Below, piece after piece: positions 1,044 to 26,702 of a DNA stretch of 64,000 nucleotides (position 1 is its first letter; every line of letters starts with the position of its first letter). The DNA comes from a phage: the sequence record PZ151149.1, one strand, 5' to 3'. Made by a program: the position numbers and the translations under genes. The notes beneath the pieces are model-generated. The model saw nothing but the letters and a program-made list of their open reading frames with translations, was not told the origin of the DNA and ran no database searches.

Positions 1044-1466
1044 TTATTGGTCTACCCTCAAAACAACAGCCGACATTTTACCCGCAAGTCGTTTTGGATT
1101 CTCTATAATCATTCGGCAGCATAGACCGTGATACGGTTTACCCTCTTCGATTAGATCTACTGTCATTCCGATCCACATGTTACCGTCAGTAATTTCTAAT
1201 CGATTAGGTCGGTCTTCCATTTTCAGGAAGTCGAAGATCTCCGGCAAACGAGTTTCTACCTTATTGAATAGTTCCATTGTCTTATGTTCATCGATATGAC
1301 GATCGGTTAATCTGTCGATCATATGTGGACTAAAGCGAATGAAAATATACTCGCCGTAACCATCATTCAAGCACTTTTCTTTGATCTGCGCATTGGTTTT
1401 GCGCATTTCGGTTTCGAAGAATCTGCGCAGCTTACTACGGCGAACATGTACGTTAATTGTTTCCAT
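1044..1466 (-). CDS. hypothetical protein (140 aa)
   Basis: ORF from ATG at 1466 with AGGAG RBS; track ORF extends upstream without RBS. Confidence 0.5.
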   Translation of the reverse strand: METINVHVRRSKLRRFFETEMRKTNAQIKEKCLNDGYGEYIFIRFSPHMIDRLTDRHIDEHKTMELFNKVETRLPEIFDFLKMEDRPNRLEITDGNMWIGMTVDLIEEGKPYHGLCCRMIIENPKRLAGKMSAVVLRVDQ

Positions 1467-1467
1467 T

Positions 1468-1806
1468 TTATTCTCCTTTCTTGAACAAATTGCGAAGCCA
1501 GTATACAAACGGGATTTCTTTAAACTTGAATTTCTCTATAGTTAATTCTTTAGTAGCAAGATGAATACCATAAGAATCATGTGTCACGATATGCCATTTT
1601 CTATAGTCCAAATGTGAACAACCATTTGAATCTAGGTTAATAATAGTTTCTCGCTCACTAGGATTGTTTTTCCACGATTTTGTAATCGGATCGCACATAA
1701 TTCGACCTAGCGTACCATGAATAATCTCGCATTTGTAAACCTTTCCGGCAGTGATATAAGCGCAACCGTCATAGTCGGTATAAACAAACACTTCTTTAAC
1801 ACTCAT
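1468..1806 (-). CDS. hypothetical protein (112 aa), member of small tandem paralog group
   Basis: ATG at 1806 with AGGAG RBS, preceded by conserved promoter-leader module; shares CSHLD..W motif with next two ORFs. Confidence 0.5.
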   Translation of the reverse strand: MSVKEVFVYTDYDGCAYITAGKVYKCEIIHGTLGRIMCDPITKSWKNNPSERETIINLDSNGCSHLDYRKWHIVTHDSYGIHLATKELTIEKFKFKEIPFVYWLRNLFKKGE

Positions 1807-1837
1807 TTTAATACTCCTTTGTAGTTTCGATGGGGGT

Positions 1838-1866
1838 ATATTACTACCCCCGTTTTGACGTGTCAA
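1838..1866 (-). promoter_or_regulatory. early promoter-leader module copy 1 (TTGACA-N17-TAATAT)
   Basis: Consensus hexamers, 17-nt spacer, leader ACCCCCATCGAAAC then AGGAG. Confidence 0.6.
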
Positions 1867-2112
1867 CTACTTTTTCAAGAATTTTTTGAGTACATTCCAA
1901 AGACCTTTATTCTCGGCTTGTTTTGGTTCTTCGATCAGTGTCCATGTTCGACCGTCTAAGTGTGCACAATTTTTAAGGCAAATAAAAATCTGGTGTCCCT
2001 TATCATCACGGATATAACCACTATTCGCAAATCTTTCATGTGGTGTATATTCATACAGTGTATTCGGTGTAATATACTTGCGGTTACTATAAGGTGTCGT
2101 TACATATTTCAT
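1867..2112 (-). CDS. hypothetical protein (81 aa), tandem paralog
   Basis: ORF; motif Y.TP...GYI.DD.G..I...L..C.HLDG..W shared with 2109..2303. Confidence 0.45.
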   Translation of the reverse strand: MKYVTTPYSNRKYITPNTLYEYTPHERFANSGYIRDDKGHQIFICLKNCAHLDGRTWTLIEEPKQAENKGLWNVLKKFLKK

Positions 2113-2303
2113 GGTACTAACTCCCAACGATCACCGCGAAGATGAGAACATCCACCATCAAGAAGGATCGTAATACGAAACCCCGCATCATCTTCAATAT
2201 ACCCGATAGTCGGTGGATGTTCGTCGTCTCGTGTCGGGGTAAAATCATACATCTTTCCCGGTGTGATATCATTGCCTTTATTGCTATTGGTATAAACTTG
2301 CAT
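2109..2303 (-). CDS. hypothetical protein (64 aa), tandem paralog
   Basis: ORF; same motif as neighbour; stop overlaps next start (ATGA). Confidence 0.45.
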   Translation of the reverse strand: MQVYTNSNKGNDITPGKMYDFTPTRDDEHPPTIGYIEDDAGFRITILLDGGCSHLRGDRWELVP

Positions 2304-2324
2304 TTTCTTAATCTCCTACATTAA

Positions 2325-3023
2325 CTAACCACGGGTATAGTGTTCCAGAACAACGGTCAGATGAATATATTCTAATAAATCTTTCCAAAAGTCAACATCT
2401 GGTTCTTCCGGCATACCGTTTTTCTTTGCCTCTTCACGCGCGAGTTTAACACGCTCGTAGAGATCTTTCAATTCTTCCCGCACATTATCAAAGGTTCTTT
2501 CTCCTAACTTACACGCTAAAATAGAAGAACGTCGCGCGAGAGGGAATTGTAGATCACCAGTCTGATAGATTTCAAGTAGCTGATAACCAACACGCAGAGC
2601 ATGAGAAAGGTCTTTCCAGTTACTGAAATACTTTTCAGATTTGGCTACCTGCTTTTTGAGATAACCGGAGCACCCCCACATACCAACATGATAGAATTTA
2701 TCGCGATGTGTTCGGATGTATTCCCATTCTCTGGAGGATTCAATCAACATGTTACTAGGCGCGTGCACCATGTCAATAGCGCCGATATCACCTTTACATG
2801 CCAGATTGATAAACCGTTTTAGACTGAACATATTAACGTCAATATCGTCTTTGGTGTTCTTGATACCTTGACCGCTAGTGCTTTGGTCATAGTGTTCTTT
2901 CATCGATCCTAAGATAATTTCTTTCGCAGTCGGAACAAAGATACCACGATAATCTTTATCGGAATTTTCAGTATCAAGGCCGTATAAGTGAGATCCGAAG
3001 ACCATTTTAACCATTGTATGCAT
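2325..3023 (-). CDS. nucleotidyltransferase-like protein (Pol-beta-type NTase fold)
   Basis: N-terminal GSHLYGLDTENSDKDYRG motif (GS..YG...SD.D) typical of predicted nucleotidyltransferases; start may be one of three nearby Met codons. Confidence 0.5.
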   Translation of the reverse strand: MHTMVKMVFGSHLYGLDTENSDKDYRGIFVPTAKEIILGSMKEHYDQSTSGQGIKNTKDDIDVNMFSLKRFINLACKGDIGAIDMVHAPSNMLIESSREWEYIRTHRDKFYHVGMWGCSGYLKKQVAKSEKYFSNWKDLSHALRVGYQLLEIYQTGDLQFPLARRSSILACKLGERTFDNVREELKDLYERVKLAREEAKKNGMPEEPDVDFWKDLLEYIHLTVVLEHYTRG

Positions 3024-3036
3024 AATTAAACCCTCA

Positions 3037-3567
3037 TTAGTATTTTACGTTACGTCGAACGCCTTTTCGAATCTGACAAATAGCAGACGGTGAAACATTA
3101 TATTTTCTTGCAAGTTCTACACCCTTCATATGGGGAGAAGATAAAATCTCTTCCACTTGGTCGTCGGTAAGTTTTGCGTTTCCGTGGTTCTCTCCCCAAT
3201 TGTTGTTTAATCCTTCTTCCTTCGCATGAACAAGATTTCGGGTATCTGTCGTCCATTCAAGATTATAAAGGTCATAGTTTTGTTTGTTTCCATCCTTATG
3301 ATTAACTACACGGTAGTTATTTGGATTCGGAATAAACGCAACCGCCATAGCTTTATGCATGTTCACGGTTTTTCTAAATCCATCCGGCTTATAACATACT
3401 GTAAATTTAGAATAACCAGTTTTACCATAAACACTAATATAATTTCCGGTCTCTGTATTTCTAACCCTACCATGAGAGCTAATCTCAAATTGAGTGTAGG
3501 GCAACAGCGCATCAATCACTTTCCATTCTTCGACAGGATGGTCATCACAATATCTTTTAATCATCAT
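3037..3567 (-). CDS. HNH homing endonuclease (NUMOD4-like N-terminus)
   Basis: Motif VNHKDGNKQNYDLYNLEW (HNH) and N-terminal W..I....YEIS..GRVRN pattern; sits after a terminator between conserved genes. Confidence 0.65.
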   Translation of the reverse strand: MMIKRYCDDHPVEEWKVIDALLPYTQFEISSHGRVRNTETGNYISVYGKTGYSKFTVCYKPDGFRKTVNMHKAMAVAFIPNPNNYRVVNHKDGNKQNYDLYNLEWTTDTRNLVHAKEEGLNNNWGENHGNAKLTDDQVEEILSSPHMKGVELARKYNVSPSAICQIRKGVRRNVKY

Positions 3568-3575
3568 ATCACCTC

Positions 3576-3607
3576 ATAAAAATAAAGCCAACCCTTTCGG
3601 ATTGGCT
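3576..3607 (-). terminator. rho-independent terminator after the GrcA-like gene
   Basis: Hairpin GCCAATCC-GAAA-GGGTTGGC followed by T-run on minus strand. Confidence 0.5.
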
Positions 3608-3614
3608 TAAAAAA

Positions 3615-4031
3615 TTACATTGCTTCCGTAAAGGTGCGCGAAATAACGTCACGTTGTTGGTCTGGAGTCAGACTATTGAATCTTACGGCATATCCGCTAA
3701 CGCGAATGGTTAGTTGCGGATACTTATCAGGATTAGCAACCGCATCAAGAAGAAGATCGCGACTCATCACATTGATATTCGCGTGCTGACCACCTTCGAC
3801 AACCGGAGCGCCATTATCTACAACAACCGGACGGAAGCTAGTTGTGTGCAGTGCCAGCGAATCGACGTCTTCGGCGGTGATCACATGTTCTTCTGCGAAA
3901 GTTTTACTAACAATTACTTTAGCGCCGATCAGTGCTTTCGGTTCGGATACCAGAATCATAGGCGCGAAGTGTCCACCGATAATAGTACCTTTATGCTCAC
4001 CTTTCATGATTTGAATTGCTTTAAATTCCAT
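3615..4031 (-). CDS. grcA: autonomous glycyl radical cofactor (GrcA/YfiD-like)
   Basis: C-terminal glycyl-radical fingerprint [13 protein letters not shown] identical in type to pyruvate formate-lyase/GrcA; T4 is known to encode a YfiD homolog. Confidence 0.75.
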
Positions 4032-4166
4032 AATTCACCTCTTATAGATCAGGACGTTCGTCATTAACTTTTCCAACCAAAACCCCATAGAGCCTATCAG
4101 GTTGGACTTTACGATTCTTTTTAATTGTAGCACGAAATCGACGAGCTACGCTATCTTTATTTTTCA

Positions 4167-4652
4167 TCAGTTGATACCTAAGCCAATGAAAATAGGTTGG
4201 TCTTCTACATTACCCATCCCAACACTAAGTCGATTTACTTCTAAAAACTGCAATACGCTGTCAGTAAATCCTCGCATGGTAGTATCTAGGATAAAGATTG
4301 TTTTGTCAAGACTACGACCTCGCCAAGTGATCGGATTCAGGAAAGTTCGGATCGAAGTGCAATCTACATTTGAAATGTTGATATTTTCACCGCGACCGCG
4401 TTCTCGGATCGTTTTGGCATGTTCCCGCGTTGTTGAAACGATAAAAACACTATATCCTTTTCGCGTATAATGGTCATATAACTTGATTGTAGCGTCTGTA
4501 TGCCCTGTTTGACGGCCTAAATTGATTGAGACGATGGAATCTAGGTCATCAGCAAAATTACGTCGCTTACGGCGTTCTATGATGCCATCTACGGCAGATA
4601 CACACGCAGCATAAATCAAATCTTTACTTTCTAATTTTACATCAATATTCAT
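4167..4652 (-). CDS. hypothetical protein (161 aa)
   Basis: ORF with ATG start; no recognisable motif. Confidence 0.5.
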   Translation of the reverse strand: MNIDVKLESKDLIYAACVSAVDGIIERRKRRNFADDLDSIVSINLGRQTGHTDATIKLYDHYTRKGYSVFIVSTTREHAKTIRERGRGENINISNVDCTSIRTFLNPITWRGRSLDKTIFILDTTMRGFTDSVLQFLEVNRLSVGMGNVEDQPIFIGLGIN

Positions 4653-4714
4653 GGTAAAGTCTCCAGTGAACGGGGAGAGATCCTTAGATTGTCTCCCCGT
4701 TGATGGTTAATATT

Positions 4715-5104
4715 TTATTTTGGATCTGGGTATTTGCTGTGTGGCAATTGTAGATGAGGACCATCTTTGAAACTAGACCAATCCCCACCCCATTCAACAG
4801 GAACACCCAATTCTCGACCAGCTTGTTTAAATGCATCAGCGATCATGCGGTAATATTTCATGTTCCATGTATCCTTATCTTTAGGATACGCTACAACGTC
4901 AACCGCGAAACCGTGAAGATGACGAGATTTCATAGTCTTAGATTTACCTTCCGCAACATATTTCTTTTGCGTTTCTAGACTACGCACACCTTCCGTAATA
5001 CCAAAATCGACCGGAGTCAGTTCTAATGCACGATGAACGACTTTTACCAGGTCTGGATGTACACCAACAAGCCGATCTTTGCTTCTTTGAGATAATTTAA
5101 ACAT
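4715..5104 (-). CDS. L-alanyl-D-glutamate peptidase endolysin (peptidase M15, T5 Lys-like)
   Basis: Close resemblance to remembered phage T5 endolysin N-terminus (V.P.L.KV..RALEL.P.DF.I..G.R) and SRHLHGFAVDV zinc-binding motif. Confidence 0.7.
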   Translation of the reverse strand: MFKLSQRSKDRLVGVHPDLVKVVHRALELTPVDFGITEGVRSLETQKKYVAEGKSKTMKSRHLHGFAVDVVAYPKDKDTWNMKYYRMIADAFKQAGRELGVPVEWGGDWSSFKDGPHLQLPHSKYPDPK

Positions 5105-5132
5105 TATTCACCCCCTTTGTGAGTGATAATAT

Positions 5133-5324
5133 TTAGATTCCTGTGATCCTGCATAGAGTTCTTGTATTAGCACCAATCAGGATCGCATTAACGGCAACCA
5201 TTCCCCAATCAACCCACGGATTATTATAAATGCTAAATCCGTTTGCTAGGCCAAATACAAGCATTCCGGTACACATACTCAGAGCAATAATCAACATCAC
5301 GGTAAAACCAAATGCAAATCTCAT
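5133..5324 (-). CDS. small membrane protein (63 aa)
   Basis: ORF, two hydrophobic segments. Confidence 0.4.
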   Translation of the reverse strand: MRFAFGFTVMLIIALSMCTGMLVFGLANGFSIYNNPWVDWGMVAVNAILIGANTRTLCRITGI

Positions 5325-5325
5325 A

Positions 5326-5541
5326 TTATTTTCCTTTTCTCTGTTTACGTTTATAAAAGTAATACATTACCTCATCGCGTCCGGTGATCCAACATGCTAG
5401 GGCGGTAAACAGGTTTACAATTCCCAACACACCTACGGATGCGGCGCTGTCAACAGACATAGGAACAGTAAAGGCCATAACTAACATAGCAACGCCACAA
5501 ATGACATTAAGCACCATTATAATAAGACCGAAGAAAACCAT
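5326..5541 (-). CDS. holin-like small membrane protein (71 aa from internal ATG; long form starts 5592)
   Basis: Two hydrophobic helices followed by basic tail YKRKQRKGK; ATG at 5541 lies 3 nt after upstream stop. Confidence 0.4.
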   Translation of the reverse strand: MVFFGLIIMVLNVICGVAMLVMAFTVPMSVDSAASVGVLGIVNLFTALACWITGRDEVMYYFYKRKQRKGK

Positions 5542-5543
5542 TG

Positions 5544-5723
5544 TCAATCCTCCGACACAAGAAAACCAACAATCACGCCAGTGATAAGACATGATGCACC
5601 GCTAATAAGACAACCCGCGCCAAGTGATTCCCACCATATAAGGGAAGCGACGATAACACAGAGTCCCCAGACTACAGCAATCACAACATAGGCAATGGTC
5701 GCCCAAAACATATATTTGTTCAT
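5544..5723 (-). CDS. small membrane protein (59 aa)
   Basis: ORF; ATGA start-stop overlap with upstream gene. Confidence 0.4.
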   Translation of the reverse strand: MNKYMFWATIAYVVIAVVWGLCVIVASLIWWESLGAGCLISGASCLITGVIVGFLVSED

Positions 5724-5908
5724 AATAAATCCCATTCACCAAACAAATAAGAAAAAAGCCATATCAACAGAAACGAGGCGATTGATCCAGCAAGCAAAAT
5801 GATATTAGAGAATCCGCCGTCTATCCAGCCAATCAAACAGAATACGCCAGTATAGAAGCACAACCCCAGCACAAAGCATACTATAATCAACCATAGATAA
5901 AACGCCAT
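5720..5908 (-). CDS. small membrane protein (62 aa)
   Basis: ORF, strongly hydrophobic. Confidence 0.4.
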   Translation of the reverse strand: MAFYLWLIIVCFVLGLCFYTGVFCLIGWIDGGFSNIILLAGSIASFLLIWLFSYLFGEWDLL

Positions 5909-5969
5909 AGAAAGCCCTCCAGTTAGCTAATTTAGTGCGGGTAGTACATTCCCCTACCCGCTTTGTTAA

Positions 5970-6128
5970 TCAACGTAGAGCTTGTTCTAAAGCGATTCCA
6001 AACCATCCGCAAACAACACCCATACAGACAGCGACAAGAAGACTCATTCTCTCTTTAGGGATCATTGCAATCATAACAACAACCATACAGAAAGCCATTA
6101 CCATTGCAGTTAACATTTGTTCAATCAT
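5970..6128 (-). CDS. small membrane protein (52 aa)
   Basis: Minus-strand ORF MIEQMLTAMVMAFCMVVVMIAMIP...; below the ORF-track size cutoff; track shows only an antisense ORF here. Confidence 0.35.
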   Translation of the reverse strand: MIEQMLTAMVMAFCMVVVMIAMIPKERMSLLVAVCMGVVCGWFGIALEQALR

Positions 6129-6130
6129 TA

Positions 6131-6445
6131 TCACACCTTCAAAGTCATAGACGCATAGACATTAATACCAGGCCAGTTAGGATCGCAATTATACTCAACA
6201 TCCCATAGATAAAGCGGTTTAGATGTATCAGCCAGGTTTTTAAAATCTTCTACCCACATTTCAAGGCTATATGAAGGATAAACTAGGCTATCATACCCTC
6301 CGTAACGTTGGCCTACTGGTCGGTCAGTAAAGACTACCTCAAGATCCGGTAATTCTTTTTCTAGGATAACCGCCAGCGCATAAATCAGGCGGTCTTCCTT
6401 GTTACGCTGCCGTAGGACCGTTGTCAGTTGGTTCGTCTGGTTCAC
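6131..6445 (-). CDS. hypothetical protein (about 104 aa)
   Basis: ORF; likely GTG start at 6445 with GGAGG RBS 9 nt upstream; overlaps 3' end of upstream gene. Confidence 0.4.
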   Translation of the reverse strand: MNQTNQLTTVLRQRNKEDRLIYALAVILEKELPDLEVVFTDRPVGQRYGGYDSLVYPSYSLEMWVEDFKNLADTSKPLYLWDVEYNCDPNWPGINVYASMTLKV

Positions 6446-6722
6446 TAGCAACTACCTCCACATTTTCACAGAATGAAATTTTCACAGACACAATTTTACC
6501 ATAAGTGAAGAATGAATATACATTATCGAGATATTCAACGTCACCTACAATCACATCAAACTGCGGATCAGCAACTGCCGCAACATATTCTACCAGTTCA
6601 TCAAGAGAATGCAACTTAATTTCATCAATTCGGCTGTATTTGGTTGCATCTTTGATCTTAAAACCACGTTCTTTCAGTTTATCGATCAGAATTTCGCGCG
6701 GAGTTTCAAACAGTTTACTCAT
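6402..6722 (-). CDS. hypothetical protein (106 aa)
   Basis: ORF with ATG start. Confidence 0.5.
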   Translation of the reverse strand: MSKLFETPREILIDKLKERGFKIKDATKYSRIDEIKLHSLDELVEYVAAVADPQFDVIVGDVEYLDNVYSFFTYGKIVSVKISFCENVEVVASEPDEPTDNGPTAA

Positions 6723-6740
6723 AATATAATCCTCACACAG

Positions 6741-6941
6741 TTAATCAGTATAGTCAATAATCTTGCACATTACAATTGAAAGAACAAAGACCGCAACCCA
6801 CATATAGATCCCAGCAATCAATGCTACTTCAATATCACAATATCCAAGAAGTACAACAGGAATAAAAACAAACATACAGACCAGCGCAATGAAACTAGCA
6901 TATACGCTCGAAAATATGATGGCACTATTATTAATTTTCAT
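6741..6941 (-). CDS. small membrane protein (66 aa)
   Basis: ORF, hydrophobic. Confidence 0.4.
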   Translation of the reverse strand: MKINNSAIIFSSVYASFIALVCMFVFIPVVLLGYCDIEVALIAGIYMWVAVFVLSIVMCKIIDYTD

Positions 6942-6942
6942 A

Positions 6943-7125
6943 TTAACAATCCTCGCGGTTTAAGTCAACTATAATTGCATACAGCATAATGAAAACACTA
7001 GCAGATCCTAGAATCAATGCACCGTCACATTTTGAAACGCGCTCATCAAAATGTAACATTATCCATCCGAGGATGTTAAAGGCGCAGACCGCGCCTATGT
7101 TCGCTAACCAATTAATCTTTTTCAT
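6943..7125 (-). CDS. small membrane protein (60 aa)
   Basis: ORF, hydrophobic. Confidence 0.4.
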   Translation of the reverse strand: MKKINWLANIGAVCAFNILGWIMLHFDERVSKCDGALILGSASVFIMLYAIIVDLNREDC

Positions 7126-7133
7126 AATATACC

Positions 7134-7460
7134 TTAGAAAGAAACAGTTTTCAAGAAATCCAGATTTTCAGTACCGAAAACAGAAAAGTAGTGTTTTCCT
7201 TTTTCGGTTTTAGAGAAAGCGATTGTCTTCTCTACATGGTGACGGAAGCCAGACAGACGATCACCCAGGTCAAGGCGGCAAGCGTAAGTAGTGCCGTTTT
7301 CGAAAGTAACCTCGATTTGAGTTTTGTCATATTCGCTTTCATAGGCTTTTGCTGCCGCGTCCTGTGCTTTACGCTCGAAGTCTTCGAAGTGGAATACTTC
7401 GTTTGCGTTAGCGAATACAGAAGATTCAGAGAAGATAACTTTAACAGATACTGGTTTCAT
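7134..7460 (-). CDS. hypothetical protein (108 aa)
   Basis: ORF preceded by conserved promoter-leader module and AGGAG RBS. Confidence 0.55.
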   Translation of the reverse strand: MKPVSVKVIFSESSVFANANEVFHFEDFERKAQDAAAKAYESEYDKTQIEVTFENGTTYACRLDLGDRLSGFRHHVEKTIAFSKTEKGKHYFSVFGTENLDFLKTVSF

Positions 7461-7502
7461 TTTGATACTCCTTAGTAGTTCGTGTTTCGTTTCGATGGGT
7501 GT

Positions 7503-7531
7503 ATTATGATATACACCCTATCGTGTGTCAA
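7503..7531 (-). promoter_or_regulatory. early promoter-leader module copy 2 (TTGACA-N17-CATAAT)
   Basis: Consensus hexamers plus leader ACACCCATCGAAACGAAACAC. Confidence 0.6.
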
Positions 7532-7539
7532 CAACTTTT

Positions 7540-7728
7540 TTAGTCTTTTTTCATAATTTCTAGGGCAGTTTCTACCGCACCTTTCCAACCTTCCCACATA
7601 ATGGACATAGTGATGAAGGTAAAGCACCCGCAGGAATCAGCCTTTTTAGAAATAAACCATTCTACAAACTCTTCGCTCATACCATGCTCTTTAGCGGATT
7701 CGCGTAATTGTTCAATTTTGTCTTCCAT
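7540..7728 (-). CDS. hypothetical protein (62 aa)
   Basis: ORF. Confidence 0.4.
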   Translation of the reverse strand: MEDKIEQLRESAKEHGMSEEFVEWFISKKADSCGCFTFITMSIMWEGWKGAVETALEIMKKD

Positions 7729-7737
7729 AGTATCACC

Positions 7738-7926
7738 TCAACACTTAACGTTATTCAATCGATTTTGAAAGTACATATAACAAGCATAGTTCTGTTTTGG
7801 TTGTACCGTATCAGATAGACACGCTTTTACAGCCTCGCGGTCCGATGGATCTACACCCTCAGCTTTAAGTAATGCTAAAATCTGGTTATAGCGTACTCTT
7901 AGTTGTACTAATGGTTTCTCCCCCAT
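7738..7926 (-). CDS. hypothetical protein (62 aa)
   Basis: ORF. Confidence 0.4.
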   Translation of the reverse strand: MGEKPLVQLRVRYNQILALLKAEGVDPSDREAVKACLSDTVQPKQNYACYMYFQNRLNNVKC

Positions 7927-7937
7927 AATATACCCTC

Positions 7938-8165
7938 TTACAGTTGATCAGCAATGTATGCGGTGCATTTGCGGAGTTTAGCCATAGCACCACCTTTCAT
8001 GTCGCTTGCGCCTACAATGTTCATGATCTCTAAGCGATCAGCCGGATTCAGTCTAGTAGCCCAGATCTGGTTAGCCAGTTCCATTTTACCCATCTGCGGT
8101 TCCATCTCAAACAGTTCACGCTCAAAGTCGATAATTTCTTTTGCTGCGTCTTTAAAGTTAATCAT
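7938..8165 (-). CDS. hypothetical protein (75 aa)
   Basis: ORF preceded by promoter-leader module. Confidence 0.5.
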   Translation of the reverse strand: MINFKDAAKEIIDFERELFEMEPQMGKMELANQIWATRLNPADRLEIMNIVGASDMKGGAMAKLRKCTAYIADQL

Positions 8166-8194
8166 TTTGATTCTCCCGTTTCGTTGATGGTTGT

Positions 8195-8223
8195 ATTGTA
8201 GGGGAGTTATCCTCCCCTGTCAA
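8195..8223 (-). promoter_or_regulatory. early promoter-leader module copy 3 (TTGACA-N17-TACAAT)
   Basis: Consensus hexamers plus leader ATCAACGAAACGGGAG. Confidence 0.6.
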
Positions 8224-8231
8224 CACTTTTA

Positions 8232-8417
8232 TCAGAAATATGCAATATAGTTTGCCAGTCCTACAGAGTCATCATTCGGCATTGCTTTTACTGCCAGTTC
8301 AAACCCTGCTTCAACTTTCTGTTTAGCGGATTCTTCGTTATAACCCCAAATTACCAGAATAGCTACTACGTTTTCTTTGCTTACTGCTTTCAGTGCTTTA
8401 GTGATGCGACGTGCCAT
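8232..8417 (-). CDS. hypothetical protein (61 aa)
   Basis: ORF preceded by promoter-leader module. Confidence 0.5.
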   Translation of the reverse strand: MARRITKALKAVSKENVVAILVIWGYNEESAKQKVEAGFELAVKAMPNDDSVGLANYIAYF

Positions 8418-8463
8418 AATTTGATTCTCCGTTTAAGAAAGTGTGTTTCGTTTCGATGGGTGT

Positions 8464-8492
8464 ATTATGCTATAGGCGGGGTCTGGTGTCAA
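8464..8492 (-). promoter_or_regulatory. early promoter-leader module copy 4 (TTGACA-N17-CATAAT)
   Basis: Consensus hexamers plus leader ACACCCATCGAAACGAAACACAC. Confidence 0.6.
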
Positions 8493-8520
8493 CAACTTTT
8501 TTCAAAAAAATTTAGGCAAT

Positions 8521-8548
8521 AAAAAAGCCACTCCGAAGAGTGGCTTAT
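8521..8548 (-). terminator. rho-independent terminator
   Basis: Hairpin AGCCACTC-TTCG-GAGTGGCT then TTTTTT on minus strand. Confidence 0.65.
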
Positions 8549-8695
8549 AGGGGAAGGTAGCGAATCTTCCTTGTCTCCAACCTGCTAGCGGCCTAGCAAG
8601 TGAATGCTTTAGCGTACCGGATCACCCCATACGCTGCAATAAATGCGGCTAGGTGACGTCCAAATCATTCTAACCGCGCTGTCTTTAGTTCACTA

Positions 8696-8914
8696 TTATT
8701 TATATCGCTTTCTCTCGCGACGTTTTTGATCTTCTTCCTTGATAGAGTTAAATGCATCAAAAAGACACATGACACTGATCAGGAACATAACCGTATTTTC
8801 TACGATATCCCACGGCTTCGCATCAGTACAGATCCCCCAAACGGTAAGAAATGCAAATAGTGCAGAAGAGATCACAAGCATGATACTTGCTAAGATATAA
8901 AAAGTCATCTTCAT
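8696..8914 (-). CDS. small membrane protein (72 aa)
   Basis: ORF, hydrophobic with basic C-terminus. Confidence 0.4.
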   Translation of the reverse strand: MKMTFYILASIMLVISSALFAFLTVWGICTDAKPWDIVENTVMFLISVMCLFDAFNSIKEEDQKRRERKRYK

Positions 8915-9093
8915 GGTTTTACCTCAATTCTTCGATATTCATCACACATCCACGCAGTAAGCAAGAATCCCAACACATAAGCAACAAAATACGTTAATGC
9001 TTCTTCTGGTTCCGTGCTATGTGTCATCAGTAAACCAGCGAGAACAGTCTTAATAATTACATTTAAAATAATTAGCCACGCAAATAGTTTCAT
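8911..9093 (-). CDS. small membrane protein (60 aa)
   Basis: ORF, hydrophobic. Confidence 0.4.
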   Translation of the reverse strand: MKLFAWLIILNVIIKTVLAGLLMTHSTEPEEALTYFVAYVLGFLLTAWMCDEYRRIEVKP

Positions 9094-9329
9094 CGTTTGC
9101 CCAATTTCGGCCGAGTCTTTTCAAACTTATACATTCCGTAACAATCTCGAATCATCCACGTAACAAGAGCACCAGTCAACACCGACAACACACAGAAGAA
9201 GTAAAACGGTCCGGTTGCATTATCAACATGAGCAAGCCATGTAAAGAAAACACATGCTAAGAATGTAAAGAACATCATAAAGCACAAGAAAGCGAAATAT
9301 TTTATACTACTCATAGAGCCACCATACAA
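9090..9329 (-). CDS. small membrane protein (79 aa)
   Basis: ORF, hydrophobic. Confidence 0.4.
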   Translation of the reverse strand: MYGGSMSSIKYFAFLCFMMFFTFLACVFFTWLAHVDNATGPFYFFCVLSVLTGALVTWMIRDCYGMYKFEKTRPKLGKR

Positions 9330-9417
9330 CAGATCATAAGAAAACCCAACGCAATAAGAATTGCATCAAATTTAGTGAACTCAGGTCCACCTATCAACAT
9401 CATTCGTTCCTGTTCAG

Positions 9418-9615
9418 TCATAGATCACAGATCCATCTAACAACACCACATACAGCGATCAGGAGTGTAGGACCACTTGAGAAGAAAACCAATGTACAAA
9501 AATCATCTAGTGTAATACCGGAATAACTACCGACTGCAATCACACCGATGATCAGACACAGAAAGAAAACAAATGCAATCAGAAACAAAGTATTACTAAA
9601 CAGTTTAGTGATCAT
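9418..9615 (-). CDS. small membrane protein (65 aa from ATG at 9615)
   Basis: ORF, hydrophobic. Confidence 0.4.
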   Translation of the reverse strand: MITKLFSNTLFLIAFVFFLCLIIGVIAVGSYSGITLDDFCTLVFFSSGPTLLIAVCGVVRWICDL

Positions 9616-9808
9616 TAGACACCCCACGACGGTCAATTTCAAAAACTTTCTTATCACCAACGAAGCATGTCACAACTGCCTCGTTGACTTCCGCAAATTG
9701 TTGTGTTACCCACTTAAGGTCAGATCGAAACAATGTTTTGTTAATAACAAATGTTTTACCGATCTTATCCTTACCCATAAATTTTGCGTTAACCATATCC
9801 AATTCCAT
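9605..9808 (-). CDS. hypothetical protein (67 aa)
   Basis: ORF. Confidence 0.4.
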   Translation of the reverse strand: MELDMVNAKFMGKDKIGKTFVINKTLFRSDLKWVTQQFAEVNEAVVTCFVGDKKVFEIDRRGVSNDH

Positions 9809-9817
9809 ATTATAGCC

Positions 9818-9976
9818 TTATTTGCTAATCGCTAAACCTAATCCGAAGAGAGCACCCGACGCTACAGTATACCCGAAAGTTTCAAATGCAGTAAAGATAT
9901 CTAAGCCACCAGCTAACAGAGTTGCAGTAAACAGAGTACCAGCTACGAACATAAAAGTTTTACCGATAAATTTCAT
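9818..9976 (-). CDS. small membrane protein (52 aa)
   Basis: Minus-strand ORF MKFIGKTFMFVAGTLF... with GGAG RBS and promoter-leader module; below track size cutoff. Confidence 0.4.
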   Translation of the reverse strand: MKFIGKTFMFVAGTLFTATLLAGGLDIFTAFETFGYTVASGALFGLGLAISK

Positions 9977-10007
9977 CTTGATTCTCCTTTCGTTTGTTTG
10001 TGGGGGT

Positions 10008-10036
10008 ATCTTACTACCCCCGTTTCATGTTGTCAA
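10008..10036 (-). promoter_or_regulatory. early promoter-leader module copy 5 (TTGACA-N17-TAAGAT)
   Basis: Consensus hexamers plus leader ACCCCCACAAACAAACGAAAGGAG. Confidence 0.55.
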
Positions 10037-10042
10037 CTGTTT

Positions 10043-10420
10043 TTAAGAAAATTTTACTTCGTCTACAATGTCTTTCATGACATTGATTTCCATTCCGGTC
10101 AGAACACGTTGGAACATGTGCTGCACATACGCTTTCAGGTATTCATTTGATGGCTTACTATCGAAAGTCTTTTTAGTGTAGTAGTCATCACCGAAAGCTA
10201 CTGTAATTACATTTTCGTCGTCGTTCCAAGCGATATAAGCAAATTTGCCGTTATCCCAGAAGCGAGCACTAATTGCTACTTTTGTTGAATCGAATCCTAC
10301 TTCGCTGTGAGATTCAAGAACTACTTGCGTACCAGTTTCTTTATGAATGTAGTAGCGGGATACTAAGTCAAAGTTACGGGTGTAGTGACATTCGAATTTA
10401 TCTTTAAACATCATCATCAT
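10043..10420 (-). CDS. hypothetical protein (125 aa)
   Basis: ORF from ATG at 10420 with GGAG RBS downstream of promoter module; track ORF start lies inside the promoter. Confidence 0.5.
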   Translation of the reverse strand: MMMMFKDKFECHYTRNFDLVSRYYIHKETGTQVVLESHSEVGFDSTKVAISARFWDNGKFAYIAWNDDENVITVAFGDDYYTKKTFDSKPSNEYLKAYVQHMFQRVLTGMEINVMKDIVDEVKFS

Positions 10421-10457
10421 TTTGATTCTCCTAAGTGTGTTTCGTTTCGATATGTGC

Positions 10458-10486
10458 ATTATGCTATAGTCGTTTATGGTTGTCAA
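10458..10486 (-). promoter_or_regulatory. early promoter-leader module copy 6 (TTGACA-N17-CATAAT)
   Basis: Consensus hexamers plus leader ATCGAAACGAAACACAC. Confidence 0.6.
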
Positions 10487-10488
10487 CA

Positions 10489-10521
10489 ACTAAAAACAAA
10501 AAACCCCGAAAAATTTTCGGG
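10489..10521 (-). terminator. rho-independent terminator after the 57B-position gene
   Basis: Hairpin CCCCGAAAA-TTTTCGGGG followed by TTTTTTGTTTTT on minus strand. Confidence 0.6.
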
Positions 10522-10529
10522 GTATAAAA

Positions 10530-26335: not shown

Positions 26336-26348
26336 GTATATGATTTTA

Positions 26349-26376
26349 AAGCCAATTCGTGAGAATTGGCTTTTTC
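26349..26376 (+). terminator. rho-independent terminator after gene 8
   Basis: Hairpin AGCCAATTC-GTGA-GAATTGGCT then TTTTTC. Confidence 0.65.
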
Positions 26377-26387
26377 TATTTTGGGTG

Positions 26388-26415
26388 TTGACAATCTTGT
26401 CTGGTGAGGTATAAT
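26388..26415 (+). promoter_or_regulatory. sigma70-like promoter (TTGACA-N16-TATAAT) for the methyltransferase cassette
   Basis: Consensus hexamers just downstream of the gene 8 terminator. Confidence 0.55.
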
Positions 26416-26444
26416 GCTCACATCTAAACAACGGAGGATAAATT

Positions 26445-26702
26445 ATGGCACGTCGTAAATTTACAGATAATTGTGAAGCAATTCAGGTATCCCCTTGCGG
26501 TTGGGATGTGATTGCGAACGGTGAAAAGATCGGAGAGATCATCGATCATACTCATTCATCATTAGCTGATTACACCGATGAACTGTGGGAAGGTATCAAC
26601 TTCATGAATGACACTAAGCGATTCAAGACTATTGACGAAGCTATCTATTTTGTATACAATCCAACTTTCGGTATGTGGAGTGATAGAAAATGGCACGCGT
26701 AA
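26445..26702 (+). CDS. hypothetical protein (85 aa), first gene of inserted cassette
   Basis: ORF downstream of sigma70-like promoter. Confidence 0.5.
   Translation: MARRKFTDNCEAIQVSPCGWDVIANGEKIGEIIDHTHSSLADYTDELWEGINFMNDTKRFKTIDEAIYFVYNPTFGMWSDRKWHA

Follow-up and report, generated by a model that had tools for sequence, protein, structure and literature searches.

Six early-promoter repeats of a Krischvirus-type phage, very probably PeSL cassettes, share a recurrent transcript start and a RegB-like Shine-Dalgarno block

The 64-kb stretch of phage DNA analysed here (the window) belongs to a Krischvirus of the RB49/phi1/JSE group, with whose genomes it has 95-96% identity. It carries six minus-strand repeats, all found where an earlier note had placed early promoters fused to a conserved leader. 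Each unit runs in the order TTGACA, 17-nt spacer (exactly 17 nt in 6/6), -10 hexamer, short A-rich leader, GGAG and ATG, and the reading as sigma-70-type early promoters joined to a conserved leader, Shine-Dalgarno sequence and start codon is upheld. The unit length of 70 bp given at the time is only approximate, as the distance from the A-tract upstream of the -35 to the ATG is about 75-95 bp. The features are as follows.

10418..10529 (-), unit A: intrinsic terminator 10523-10503, then an A/T tract; -35 10486-10481; -10 CATAAT 10463-10458; predicted +1 10451; leader ATCGAAACGAAACACACTTA; GGAGAATCAAA 10431-10421; ATG 10420-10418; ortholog, phi1 intergenic region 126/125, i.e. 57B/ORF125
9974..10050 (-), unit B: stop codon of the upstream gene inside the A/T tract; -35 10036-10031; -10 TAAGAT 10013-10008, in the loop of hairpin GGGGGTA-GTAAGA-TACCCCC 10021-10002; predicted +1 10001; GGAGAATCAAG 9987-9977; ATG 9976-9974; phi1 125/124
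8415..8546 (-), unit C: intrinsic terminator 8546-8525, then an A/T tract; -35 8492-8487; -10 CATAAT 8469-8464; predicted +1 8457; leader of 40 nt; GGAGAATCAAA 8430-8420; ATG 8417-8415; phi1 118/117
8163..8240 (-), unit D: -35 8223-8218; hairpin AGGGGAG-GATAA-CTCCCCT 8218-8200 filling the spacer; -10 TACAAT 8200-8195; predicted +1 8188; GGAGAATCAAA 8176-8166; ATG 8165-8163; phi1 117/116
7458..7550 (-), unit E: -35 7531-7526; -10 CATAAT 7508-7503, in the loop and 3' arm of hairpin GGGTGTAT-ATCATA-ATACACCC 7518-7497; predicted +1 7496; GGAGTATCAAA 7471-7461; ATG 7460-7458; phi1 114/113
1804..1885 (-), unit F: upstream TAG stop abutting the -35 1866-1861; -10 TAATAT 1843-1838; hairpin GGGGGTA-GTAATA-TACCCCC 1851-1832; predicted +1 1831; GGAGTATTAAA 1817-1807; ATG 1806-1804; phi1 096/095
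1044..1466 (-), regB: just downstream of unit F; Pfam PF10715, E = 2.3e-48
26340..26450 (+), a further, more diverged cassette of the same type, outside the region of the earlier note: terminator hairpin upstream; TTGACA (26388)-N16-TATAAT; leader GCTCAC followed by ATCTAAACAACGGAGG and, further on, ATG

The pattern TTGACA-N15-19-TANNAT matches 15 times in the 64-kb window against 1.58 expected, and a longer pattern that includes the discriminator matches 10 times against 2.63, its five matches without mismatch being units B-F. A repeat search of the window recovers the units as repeat families D1-D3, and GGAG(A/T)AT(C/T)AA occurs 7 times on both strands of the 64 kb, six of these occurrences being the units.

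JSE, RB49 and phi1 each have all six units at the orthologous sites, with identities of 92.6-100% (92.6-99.3% for unit A). In the GEC-3S record, the orthologs of units C, D and E carry promoter annotations, and the hairpin that precedes C is listed as a terminator. We consider it highly probable that the units are PeSL (promoter-early stem-loop) cassettes of an RB49/phi1/JSE-type T4-like coliphage, working along the lines proposed below. Cassettes of this kind, about 50 per genome and recombining with each other, were described by Arbiol et al. 2010 (PMC2839356), and the finding is thus already known; the earlier note had the promoter, leader and palindrome right but missed this published identity. 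Arbiol et al. interpret the stem-loop as a terminator/attenuator and see in the repeat a recombination substrate; promoter strength, mini-circles and, for one spacer-type stem-loop, terminator activity were all documented on PeSL copies other than these six (PMC2839356). The RB49/phi1 consensus is TTGACA-N17-TATAAT with a Gn-loop-Cn stem (Comeau et al. 2014, PMC4122927). The phi1 genome has 50 TTGACA-N16-18-(-10)-SD-ATG sites, most of which have the A-tract, palindrome, leader and GGAGAATCAAAATG in common. The published cassettes (PMC2839356, PMC4122927) belong to the same phage genus, sit at the same six loci and have the same anatomy: an A/T tract with the upstream stop, a TTGACA-N17-TATAAT-like promoter, a Shine-Dalgarno sequence and ATG, with a Gn-loop-Cn stem that is placed either upstream, within the spacer or across the -10; no structural differences separate them from our units. 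These two papers do not discuss the discriminator/initial transcribed block or the RegB-like Shine-Dalgarno sequence, contain neither the word "RegB" nor "leader", and do not report the motif outside the T4-like phages.

Exact alignment, which the earlier note had set as a test of leader conservation, leaves that conservation standing, but unequally among the copies. Units A, C and E have 15 nt in common (ATCGAAACGAAACAC, beginning 7 nt after the -10), of which F keeps the first 8; D has a 2-nt deletion (ATCAACGAAAC), B has diverged (ACAAACAAACGAAAG), and indels change the leader length between copies, from 23 to 40 nt. The block stressed in that note, ACCCATCGAAACGAAACAC, is part discriminator and part initial transcribed sequence, and the discriminator ACACCC doubles as the 3' arm of the hairpin. 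Across phi1, C at -5, -3 and -1, A at +1 and T at +2 each carry 1.1-1.7 bits, like the positions of the -10 itself. Nolan et al. report that 5'-end mapping bears out the predicted RB49 early consensus, in which -3 to -1 are C.

The same leader start, ATCGAAACGAAAC, always positioned 6 nt after the -10, also opens early transcripts elsewhere: in lambdoid phages of the phi80 type, in T1-like phages and in other T4-like phages. The motif is found at at least 120 loci, 98% of them with a -10-like hexamer, whereas the reversed motif used as a control gave 21 loci, 12% with T at hexamer position 1. In phi80 pL, ATCGAAACGAAAC comes 6 nt after the annotated -10, as in the units, with no gene start near the leader block at +1; in the T1-like phage SU57 the arrangement is TATTAT-tactcc-ATCGAAACGAAACGAAATTACTAAGGAATACAAAATG, again like the units. 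T7 A1 starts ATCGAGAGGG after ..CAGCC, T7 A3 starts ATGAAACGACAG, and T7 A2 (TTGACAACATGAAGTAACATGCAGTAAGATAC) has TTGACAACATGAA and AGTAAGATAC in common with unit B. Unlike the units, the phi80 pL, T7 A1/A2/A3 and T1-like promoters have neither a Gn-Cn hairpin across the -10 nor the GGAGAATCAAA block, and the pL transcripts run into nut/put sites rather than a gene start. That the first 13 bases of transcripts recur in unrelated phage families seems to be an undescribed point. Since phages that lack RegB also have ACCCATCGAAACGAAACAC at +1 of promoters, the block points to a role in transcription initiation or at the RNA 5' end rather than as a processing site.

Could the conservation of leader and Shine-Dalgarno sequence instead be a by-product, without function of its own, of recent copies kept alike by recombination or gene conversion between PeSLs? 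Mini-circle crossovers do map between the -10 and the Shine-Dalgarno/ATG of flanking PeSLs (PMC2839356), the paralogs are mosaic-like (A and C retain a 3' arm region of the ACACCC type but no 5' arm to match it), and orthologous leaders differ between phages (A and F are each 92.6% identical to phi1). However, homogenisation within a single genome cannot account for a 13-14 nt start that recurs, at the same 6 nt from the -10, on promoters of phi80-type lambdoid (pL), T1-like and other T4-like genera with unrelated -35, spacer and -10 sequences, nor for the excess over the reversed-motif control; we regard this explanation as possible but rather unlikely.

The G/C-clamped palindrome that had been noticed over the spacer and -10 in several copies is borne out as a perfect 7-8 bp stem in four of the six units (B, D, E and F), with arms GGGGGTA/TACCCCC in B and F, GGGTGTAT/ATACACCC in E and (A)GGGGAG/CTCCCC(T) in D. 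Units A and C have no palindrome inside the promoter, but a canonical 9-bp terminator stem upstream, with 7 (A) and 5 (C) T among the 8 nt that follow. In a shuffled unit, a perfect stem of 6 bp or more that includes 4 or more GC pairs arises with p = 0.003, and the shuffles put the probability of four or more such units out of six at about 1e-9. Among paralogs the stems are 100% and 97.5% paired and show compensatory changes (one pair goes from GC to AU, three pairs have double changes; 0/500 shuffles reach the observed score), and the three wobble pairs are all G.T on the sense strand only. The 8 nt after the promoter-embedded stems contain 0-1 U (B, E, F) or 1 (D), and these stems are consequently not canonical intrinsic terminators. 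In the published PeSL assay, a stem of the spacer type, followed by UAUAAU, terminated in the sense orientation (PMC2839356). A hairpin (B, D, E, F), even lacking a U-tract, or a terminator just upstream (A, C) may act on the RNA of the previous cassette, which would insulate neighbouring units.

Two other roles for the hairpins deserve consideration. The stems might stop antisense transcription into the early region, or act as DNA hairpins/cruciforms that stimulate recombination or open-complex formation, rather than on sense read-through RNA. The plus-strand tails are indeed T-richer (B TTCATGTTGT, flagged as terminator-like; F GTTTTGACG), those on the sense strand have no U, and the loop contains the -10 hexamer in B, E and F. 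Against such roles, each G.T wobble would become an A.C mismatch on the plus strand, the assay just cited showed termination in the sense orientation, and our analysis gave no evidence of antisense promoters; all told, such roles appear unlikely. Still more doubtful, to the point of being very improbable, is that the palindromes are operators at which a dimeric phage or host protein, bound over the spacer and -10, would switch early promoters off or target recombination. A palindrome overlapping the -10 or -35 is a classic operator layout, and Arbiol et al. speculate on a GGGG...CCCC-binding recombination protein (PMC2839356), but the arms vary in sequence (GGGGGTA, GGGAGTA, GGGTGTAT, GGGGATAT, GGGGAG, GGGGATC, GCGGTTA), in register (i+j = 57 vs 55) and in position while compensatory changes keep the pairing, which is the signature of a nucleic-acid stem and not of a sequence-specific site; moreover, the wobbles are confined to one strand and two of the six units have no palindrome. 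Finally, that the leader is a structured cis-regulatory RNA of the six genes (riboswitch-like, or an RNase III/RNase E processing signal) has nothing for it beyond the sequence conservation first seen and is scarcely credible for indel-variable leaders of 23-40 nt with predicted MFEs of 0 to -2.6 kcal/mol (weaker than shuffles in 5/6, D alone folding slightly better) and no Rfam family in the units even at E < 0.5.

The proposal of post-transcriptional control or a processing site in the leader is not favoured for ACCCATCGAAACGAAACAC and gains specific, if indirect, support only at the leader 3' end, which is RegB/S1-like. RegB is the endoribonuclease of T4-type phages that cuts early Shine-Dalgarno sequences at GG/AG, with the T4 RegB/S1 consensus GG/AGRAYARAA (Durand et al. 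2006, PMC1702504; Uzan and Miller 2010, PMC3014915). In all six units the GGAG(A/T)AT(C/T)AA block matches this consensus at 9-10 of 11 positions, and the Shine-Dalgarno sequence of regB itself, GGAGAATAAAA, at 11/11. Like the T4 sites, the units have the invariant GGAG as an early-gene Shine-Dalgarno sequence followed by an A-rich 7-mer in single-stranded RNA, but at position 8 of this putative site, where T4 strongly prefers A, all six have C or T. The RB49-type RegB has itself diverged from that of T4, being one of three diverged RegB sequences; the RB49 regB Shine-Dalgarno sequence, GGAU, is reported to be cleaved in vivo, and that site is the ortholog of the regB site in the window. RegB-like matches are enriched at promoter-proximal Shine-Dalgarno sites in phi1 (35/49 vs 18/125, p = 9e-13) and in the window (p = 0.005), both values being confounded because the cassettes are themselves copies of each other. 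On sequence grounds, the block is likely a target of the phage RegB together with ribosomal protein S1, and unit F is predicted to drive an ORF095-like gene and regB downstream.

Right after infection, unmodified host sigma-70 RNA polymerase would use the A-tract, TTGACA, 17-nt spacer and -10, and would start at the A after the C-rich discriminator, 7 nt after the -10. The resulting leader of 23-40 nt, roughly 50% A and unstructured, would favour fast ribosome loading on GGAG, and cleavage by RegB/S1 would shut the promoter-proximal genes off later in infection. On this reading, every unit is a compact module between genes and launches a small early operon. As roughly 100 bp common to about 50 copies per genome, the cassettes would also be sites of homologous recombination. 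The three indels that distinguish the window phage, JSE, RB49 and phi1 in 12.5 kb (3037-3561; 4730-4754; 6738-6937) fall at none of the six units, so that a shuffling role is not visible in this comparison. Arbiol et al. drew the analogy with integron gene cassettes and lambdoid "morons", likewise small single-gene modules with their own expression signals that are gained or lost as whole units. Unlike the integron, PeSLs have no integrase or attC-type site, and their mobility is proposed to come from homologous recombination between the regulatory repeats themselves, which would shuffle the small genes that they flank.

The six minus-strand repeats of the window, each consisting of a TTGACA, a spacer, a -10 hexamer, a leader and a GGAG–ATG ending, were all recovered both by reading of the strand and by a pattern scan of the minus strand (TTGACA and a -10 hexamer set 16–18 nt apart, then a Shine-Dalgarno sequence and an ATG). 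We call them units A to F and list them by the start of the TTGACA, with the -10 hexamer, the Shine-Dalgarno block and the equivalent intergenic site of phage phi1:

10486, minus strand: unit A; -10 CATAAT; block GGAGAATCAAA; phi1 intergenic 126/125
10036, minus strand: unit B; -10 TAAGAT; block GGAGAATCAAG; phi1 intergenic 125/124
8492, minus strand: unit C; -10 CATAAT; block GGAGAATCAAA; phi1 intergenic 118/117
8223, minus strand: unit D; -10 TACAAT; block GGAGAATCAAA; phi1 intergenic 117/116
7531, minus strand: unit E; -10 CATAAT; block GGAGTATCAAA; phi1 intergenic 114/113
1866, minus strand: unit F; -10 TAATAT; block GGAGTATTAAA; phi1 intergenic 096/095

The observation made in the earlier note thus holds as a whole. 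The TTGACA and its 17-nt spacer are present in all six units, the -10 agrees with TATAAT at four or five of its six positions (A2 and T6 being constant in 6/6), and the GGAG is followed, after 6–8 nt in every unit, by an ATG that opens a minus-strand ORF. The repetition far exceeds chance: the window holds 15 matches to TTGACA-N15-19-TANNAT where 1.58 are expected, and when the pattern is lengthened to take in the discriminator it holds 10 where 2.63 are expected, the five perfect ones being units B to F. A repeat search of the window returns the units as its top repeat families, and six of the seven occurrences of GGAG[AT]AT[CT]AA in the whole 64 kb lie within them. The conserved leader that the note had also described survives exact alignment overall, most strongly in A, C and E, which have ATCGAAACGAAACAC in common starting 7 nt after the -10, but the conservation is uneven: unit F shares the first 8 nt with these three, unit D has a 2-nt deletion and unit B has diverged.

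Promoter-early stem-loop (PeSL) cassettes were described in the RB49 group of T4-like coliphages by Arbiol et al. 2010 as repeated intergenic motifs upstream of small, functionally uncharacterised genes in plastic genome regions, with 52 copies in phi1 and 51 in RB49 (PMC2839356). An A/T-rich tract holding the stop codon of the upstream gene, a sigma-70 promoter with consensus elements and a polyG/polyC stem-loop precede the Shine-Dalgarno sequence and the start codon; the stem-loop takes one of five positions, most commonly in the space separating the -35 from the -10 or over the -10 (PMC2839356). Comeau et al. 2014 restated the RB49/phi1 consensus as TTGACA-N17-TATAAT plus a Gn-loop-Cn stem (PMC4122927). 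Of all the copies, activity in vivo is reported for two: very strong promoter activity for PeSL206/205, and terminator-like activity for the stem-loop of PeSL211/210 (PMC2839356).

The first 12 kb of the window have 95–96% identity to the Krischvirus genomes Whisky, JSE, phi1 and their relatives, with the gene order vs, vs.1, regB, nrdC.11, vs.6, vs.8, endolysin, many small ORFs, dmd, 57B, 57A and gene 1. Every structural component of a PeSL is found in the six units: the promoter, the stem-loop, the Shine-Dalgarno sequence with its start codon, and the A/T-rich region, here an AAAAAG(T)TG 5′ of the TTGACA (in units A and C a terminator occupies the region 5′ of the -35 instead). Their setting is also intergenic, at orthologous sites upstream of small genes in JSE, RB49 and phi1 (92.6–100% identity), and promoter annotations for the orthologs of C, D and E, with a terminator annotation for the stem 5′ of C, are already present in the GenBank record of GEC-3S. 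When the entire phi1 genome was scanned, 50 promoter-leader sites came out, about 40 of them sharing the A-tract, palindromes, leader and GGAGAATCAAAATG, as compared with the 52 PeSLs reported for that phage (PMC2839356). Since structure, orthologous sites and existing annotation all fit, the six units are published PeSL cassettes and the feature is already known; as such it has little significance, its recognition serving to annotate six predicted early promoters and their putative insulators in the window. The gene driven by unit E (7134–7460, minus strand) has a match (E = 3e-14) to Pfam LPD25, large polyvalent protein associated domain 25. Further, looser PeSL-type sigma-70 early promoters lie elsewhere in the window:

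26388, plus strand: promoter with a terminator upstream and a ATCTAAAC.. leader
50860, minus strand: promoter
35362, plus strand: promoter whose leader contains a GGGGGGAGTATTCCCCC hairpin
1021, minus strand: promoter

The palindromes reported in several copies are real: units B, D, E and F carry perfect 7–8 bp G/C-rich inverted repeats inside the promoter, and the chance of perfect stems in at least four of six shuffled units is about 1e-9. No internal palindrome was found in units A and C, which have a canonical intrinsic terminator just upstream (10523–10503 for A, 8546–8525 for C). The stem lies over the -10 and discriminator in B, E and F, in the spacer in D and upstream in A and C, and the best stems of 43 units from the window and phi1 fall into upstream, over -35, spacer and over -10/discriminator classes. 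In the last of these, represented by B, E and F, the -10 hexamer is in the loop and the 3′ arm is the discriminator ACNCCC. Among paralogs in the GGGNGTA/TACNCCC register, five sequences have AU at one pair, four have GC and one has GU, and 100% of the cells are paired; in the other register two-sided changes occur at three pairs, 97.5% of the cells are paired and 0/500 shuffles reach the observed score. A protein operator was rejected on this covariation together with the variable sequence, register and position of the arms: all of these differ and the pairing is kept, which argues for selection on a nucleic-acid stem. The three wobbles among the paralogs are all G.T on the sense strand, a hint that sense RNA or sense single-stranded DNA is the acting form. 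In B, D, E and F the stems within the promoter are not canonical terminators, because the U-tract looked for directly 3′ of them amounts to only 0–1 U in 8 nt; unlike them, the stems that stand apart, upstream of A and of C, do combine G/C-rich pairing with a U-tract. The stem tested in the literature was of the spacer type and followed by UAUAAU (PMC2839356), and those of B, E and F differ in having the -10 in the loop. Possible roles for such hairpins are attenuation, 3′-end protection, action on the antisense strand or a function at the DNA level.

Flanking PeSLs are known to recombine into mini-circles, with crossovers mapped to the stretch from the -10 to the Shine-Dalgarno sequence or ATG (PMC2839356). 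When the window phage, JSE, RB49 and phi1 were compared over 1–12.5 kb, no PeSL-bounded indel turned up near the six units. The indels in this region are:

3037–3561: homing-endonuclease gene (3037–3567, minus strand) between nrdC.11 and vs.6, present in the window and JSE, absent from RB49 and phi1
4730–4754: site of a 644-bp insertion in JSE
6738–6937: 200-bp segment (66-aa ORF) replaced by 397 bp (ORF110, ORF111) in RB49 and phi1

JSE aligns through the last segment, and there is no PeSL at its junctions. With no indel at any unit, a shuffling role therefore rests on the literature and is not visible here; association with indels is a reported tendency of the family, not a strict criterion for a PeSL. 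In the same region, the vs.6 product ends in RVSGYAVRF, which by reading of the sequence resembles a glycyl-radical motif, and a “pyruvate formate-lyase” product is among the features listed for these 12 kb in phage JEP8.

Between an ORF118-like gene and unit C there is a non-coding gap of about 175 nt (8520–8700, minus strand), unannotated in JSE, RB49 and phi1, whose fold comprises three to four hairpins besides the terminator (MFE -64.8 kcal/mol, z = -4.2). Within Krischvirus it is 97–100% conserved, as against the regional 95–96%; no homologs were found outside the genus, the gap has no match in Rfam, and ARAGORN finds no tRNA or tmRNA anywhere in the window. We consider it a candidate small stable RNA.

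When the predicted +1 is placed at the A lying 7 nt beyond the -10, the six units have leaders of 23–40 nt that are about 50% A. Their predicted MFE is 0 to -2.6 kcal/mol, weaker than that of shuffled sequences in five of the six, D alone being slightly better. Rfam in permissive mode over 1–12.5 kb gave four matches. All score well under the gathering threshold, none covers the promoter, leader or Shine-Dalgarno sequence of a unit, and the most that their 3′ ends reach is the terminator and A/T tract upstream of C and A. A structured leader was rejected on length and folding, and a structured regulatory RNA is unlikely, given leaders that are unstructured by prediction and match no Rfam family.

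The end of the leader is another matter. T4 RegB, an endoribonuclease helped by ribosomal protein S1, cuts GG|AG in the 11-nt single-stranded sequence GGAGRAYARAA and thereby inactivates early mRNAs (PMC1702504, PMC3014915). The GGA followed by G (or U) that is invariant for RegB/S1 occurs as GGAG in 6/6 units, whose Shine-Dalgarno blocks agree with the consensus at 9–10 of 11 positions and have no forbidden C at positions 5, 6 or 9. They depart from it at position 8, where T4 RegB strongly prefers A and the units have C (A to E) or T (F), and at position 5 (R), where E and F have T. By prediction, from the leader MFE of 0 to -2.6 kcal/mol, the site is single-stranded. Shine-Dalgarno sequences with GGAG that score at least 9/11 are enriched near early promoters (within 90 nt), both in phi1 (35/49 against 18/125 elsewhere, p = 9e-13) and in the window (8/15 against 7/47, p = 0.005), an enrichment confounded by the fact that the cassettes are copies of each other. 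The enzyme itself is encoded in the operon driven by unit F:

1044–1466, minus strand: regB (Pfam REGB_T4, E = 2.3e-48)
1467–1481, minus strand: Shine-Dalgarno sequence of regB, GGAGAATAAAA, agreeing with the T4 RegB consensus at every position

In RB49, JSE and phi1 the latter reads GGATAATAAAA; of the sites discussed here, it is the RB49 regB Shine-Dalgarno (GGAU) alone whose cleavage in vivo is reported (PMC1702504, PMC3014915). Together these observations support, concretely though indirectly, the idea of a processing site in the earlier note, and the block is plausible as a putative RegB target. If true, such a RegB/S1-like, promoter-proximal Shine-Dalgarno would tie the cassette to the timed shut-off of early genes and go beyond its published description. 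The earlier note had read the conserved leader as a sign of post-transcriptional control or a processing site, not just a promoter. Of that interpretation, the combination of promoter and leader stands and the palindromes are structural; processing is plausible at the Shine-Dalgarno end only, via RegB, and the 5′ block points instead to initiation or to the 5′ end of the RNA.

This initial block of the transcript is not confined to Krischvirus. In blastn searches with unit E, the promoter-leader also appears in Cronobacter phage S13, of another T4-like genus, and the leader with its Shine-Dalgarno in T1-like Drexlerviridae. An exact scan of IMG/VR (A at -11, T at -7, five free bases and then CATCGAAACGAAAC, so that only A2 and T6 of the hexamer were imposed) found at least 120 loci, with about 104–106 distinct contexts among the matches listed. 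In 98% of the contexts among the matches listed (104) the hexamer is within two mismatches of TATAAT, and in 86% it has T at position 1. When the hexamer was moved by 4 nt the control gave 53 loci, none of them -10-like, and the reversed motif gave 21, with 41% within two mismatches and 12% with T at position 1. In every promoter-like case among the matches listed the motif stands exactly 6 nt after the hexamer. The transcript start ATCGAAACGAAAC is found 6 nt after the -10 in the pL of phi80-type lambdoid phages, in T1-like phages and in several T4-like genera (loci L008–L129 and L204), and in the window at 10451, 8457 and 7496.

Of the 106 contexts among the matches listed, 76 are homologous and form one family, that of the pL leader in phi80/HK-type lambdoid phages; in phi80 the motif comes directly after the annotated pL -10, with nutL boxA 65 nt later. 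The other 30 contexts listed belong to T1-like phages, T4-like contigs of 174–183 kb, a few others and three G+C-rich contigs, and 24 of these 30 have a Shine-Dalgarno-like sequence and a start codon with a leader of 25–37 nt (57 nt in one), much like the leaders of PeSLs. In T7, the transcript of A1 starts ATCGAGAGGG (ATCGAG..) and that of A3 ATGAAACGACAG (ATGAAACGAC..), and A2 (locus L205, 181–225) has TTGACAACATGAA and AGTAAGATAC in common with the core promoter of unit B, TTGACAACATGAAACGGGGGTAGTAAGATAC (10036–10005). In a scan of GTDB (596 Gb), 82 of 118 motif matches are not promoter-like, mostly chance matches as expected at such a size; the promoter-like ones come mostly from Enterobacterales prophages and one Vibrio promoter family.

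The Vibrio family (L220, L227, L296, L322), ..ctccaTATACTctctcc, has the same start ATCGAAACGAAACA followed by a small hairpin. In other T4-like genera (Cronobacter phage S13 and contigs of 174–183 kb; loci L073, L076, L084, L107 and L009) the -35 lies inside a terminator hairpin whose T-run serves as the promoter spacer; these composites have the same transcript start and are PeSL-like with a different geometry.

Either selection or the exchange of promoter-leader modules may account for the shared start. Pure homogenisation within a genome is argued against, since the start is common to unrelated promoters, including those of phages without RegB and those with no nearby gene start. The shared start points to a role in the initiation of transcription or in escape, or else to some property of the 5′ end of the RNA. 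A full-text search for the motif string found it in none of the papers covered, and no description of the shared motif was found, and a search for Krischvirus transcriptomics returned nothing relevant. The residual novelty is this cross-family initial transcribed motif and its pairing with a RegB-like Shine-Dalgarno.

As a tentative proposal, which we hold to be possible rather than probable, the first 13 nt (the A+1 TCGAAACGAAAC, after a discriminator ending in C) would be a distinct element selected in early or strong sigma-70 promoters of unrelated Enterobacterales phages, and in Krischvirus it would be joined to a RegB-cleavable Shine-Dalgarno and an upstream hairpin in a “start strongly, insulate, then switch off” module. 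Besides Krischvirus, the phages sharing the element may include other “pseudo-T-even” genera, T1-like Drexlerviridae and the phi80/HK-type lambdoid phages with their pL. Its step of action would be transcription initiation, promoter escape or, at the 5′ end of the RNA, stability or the loading of ribosomes or S1. Should the shared start prove functional, promoter strength or mRNA fate in E. coli would have a compact and portable determinant, which would interest work on phage gene regulation and on the design of expression cassettes; should it only reflect that promoter-leader modules are exchanged, the transfer of cassettes across families proposed by the PeSL authors would gain direct evidence.
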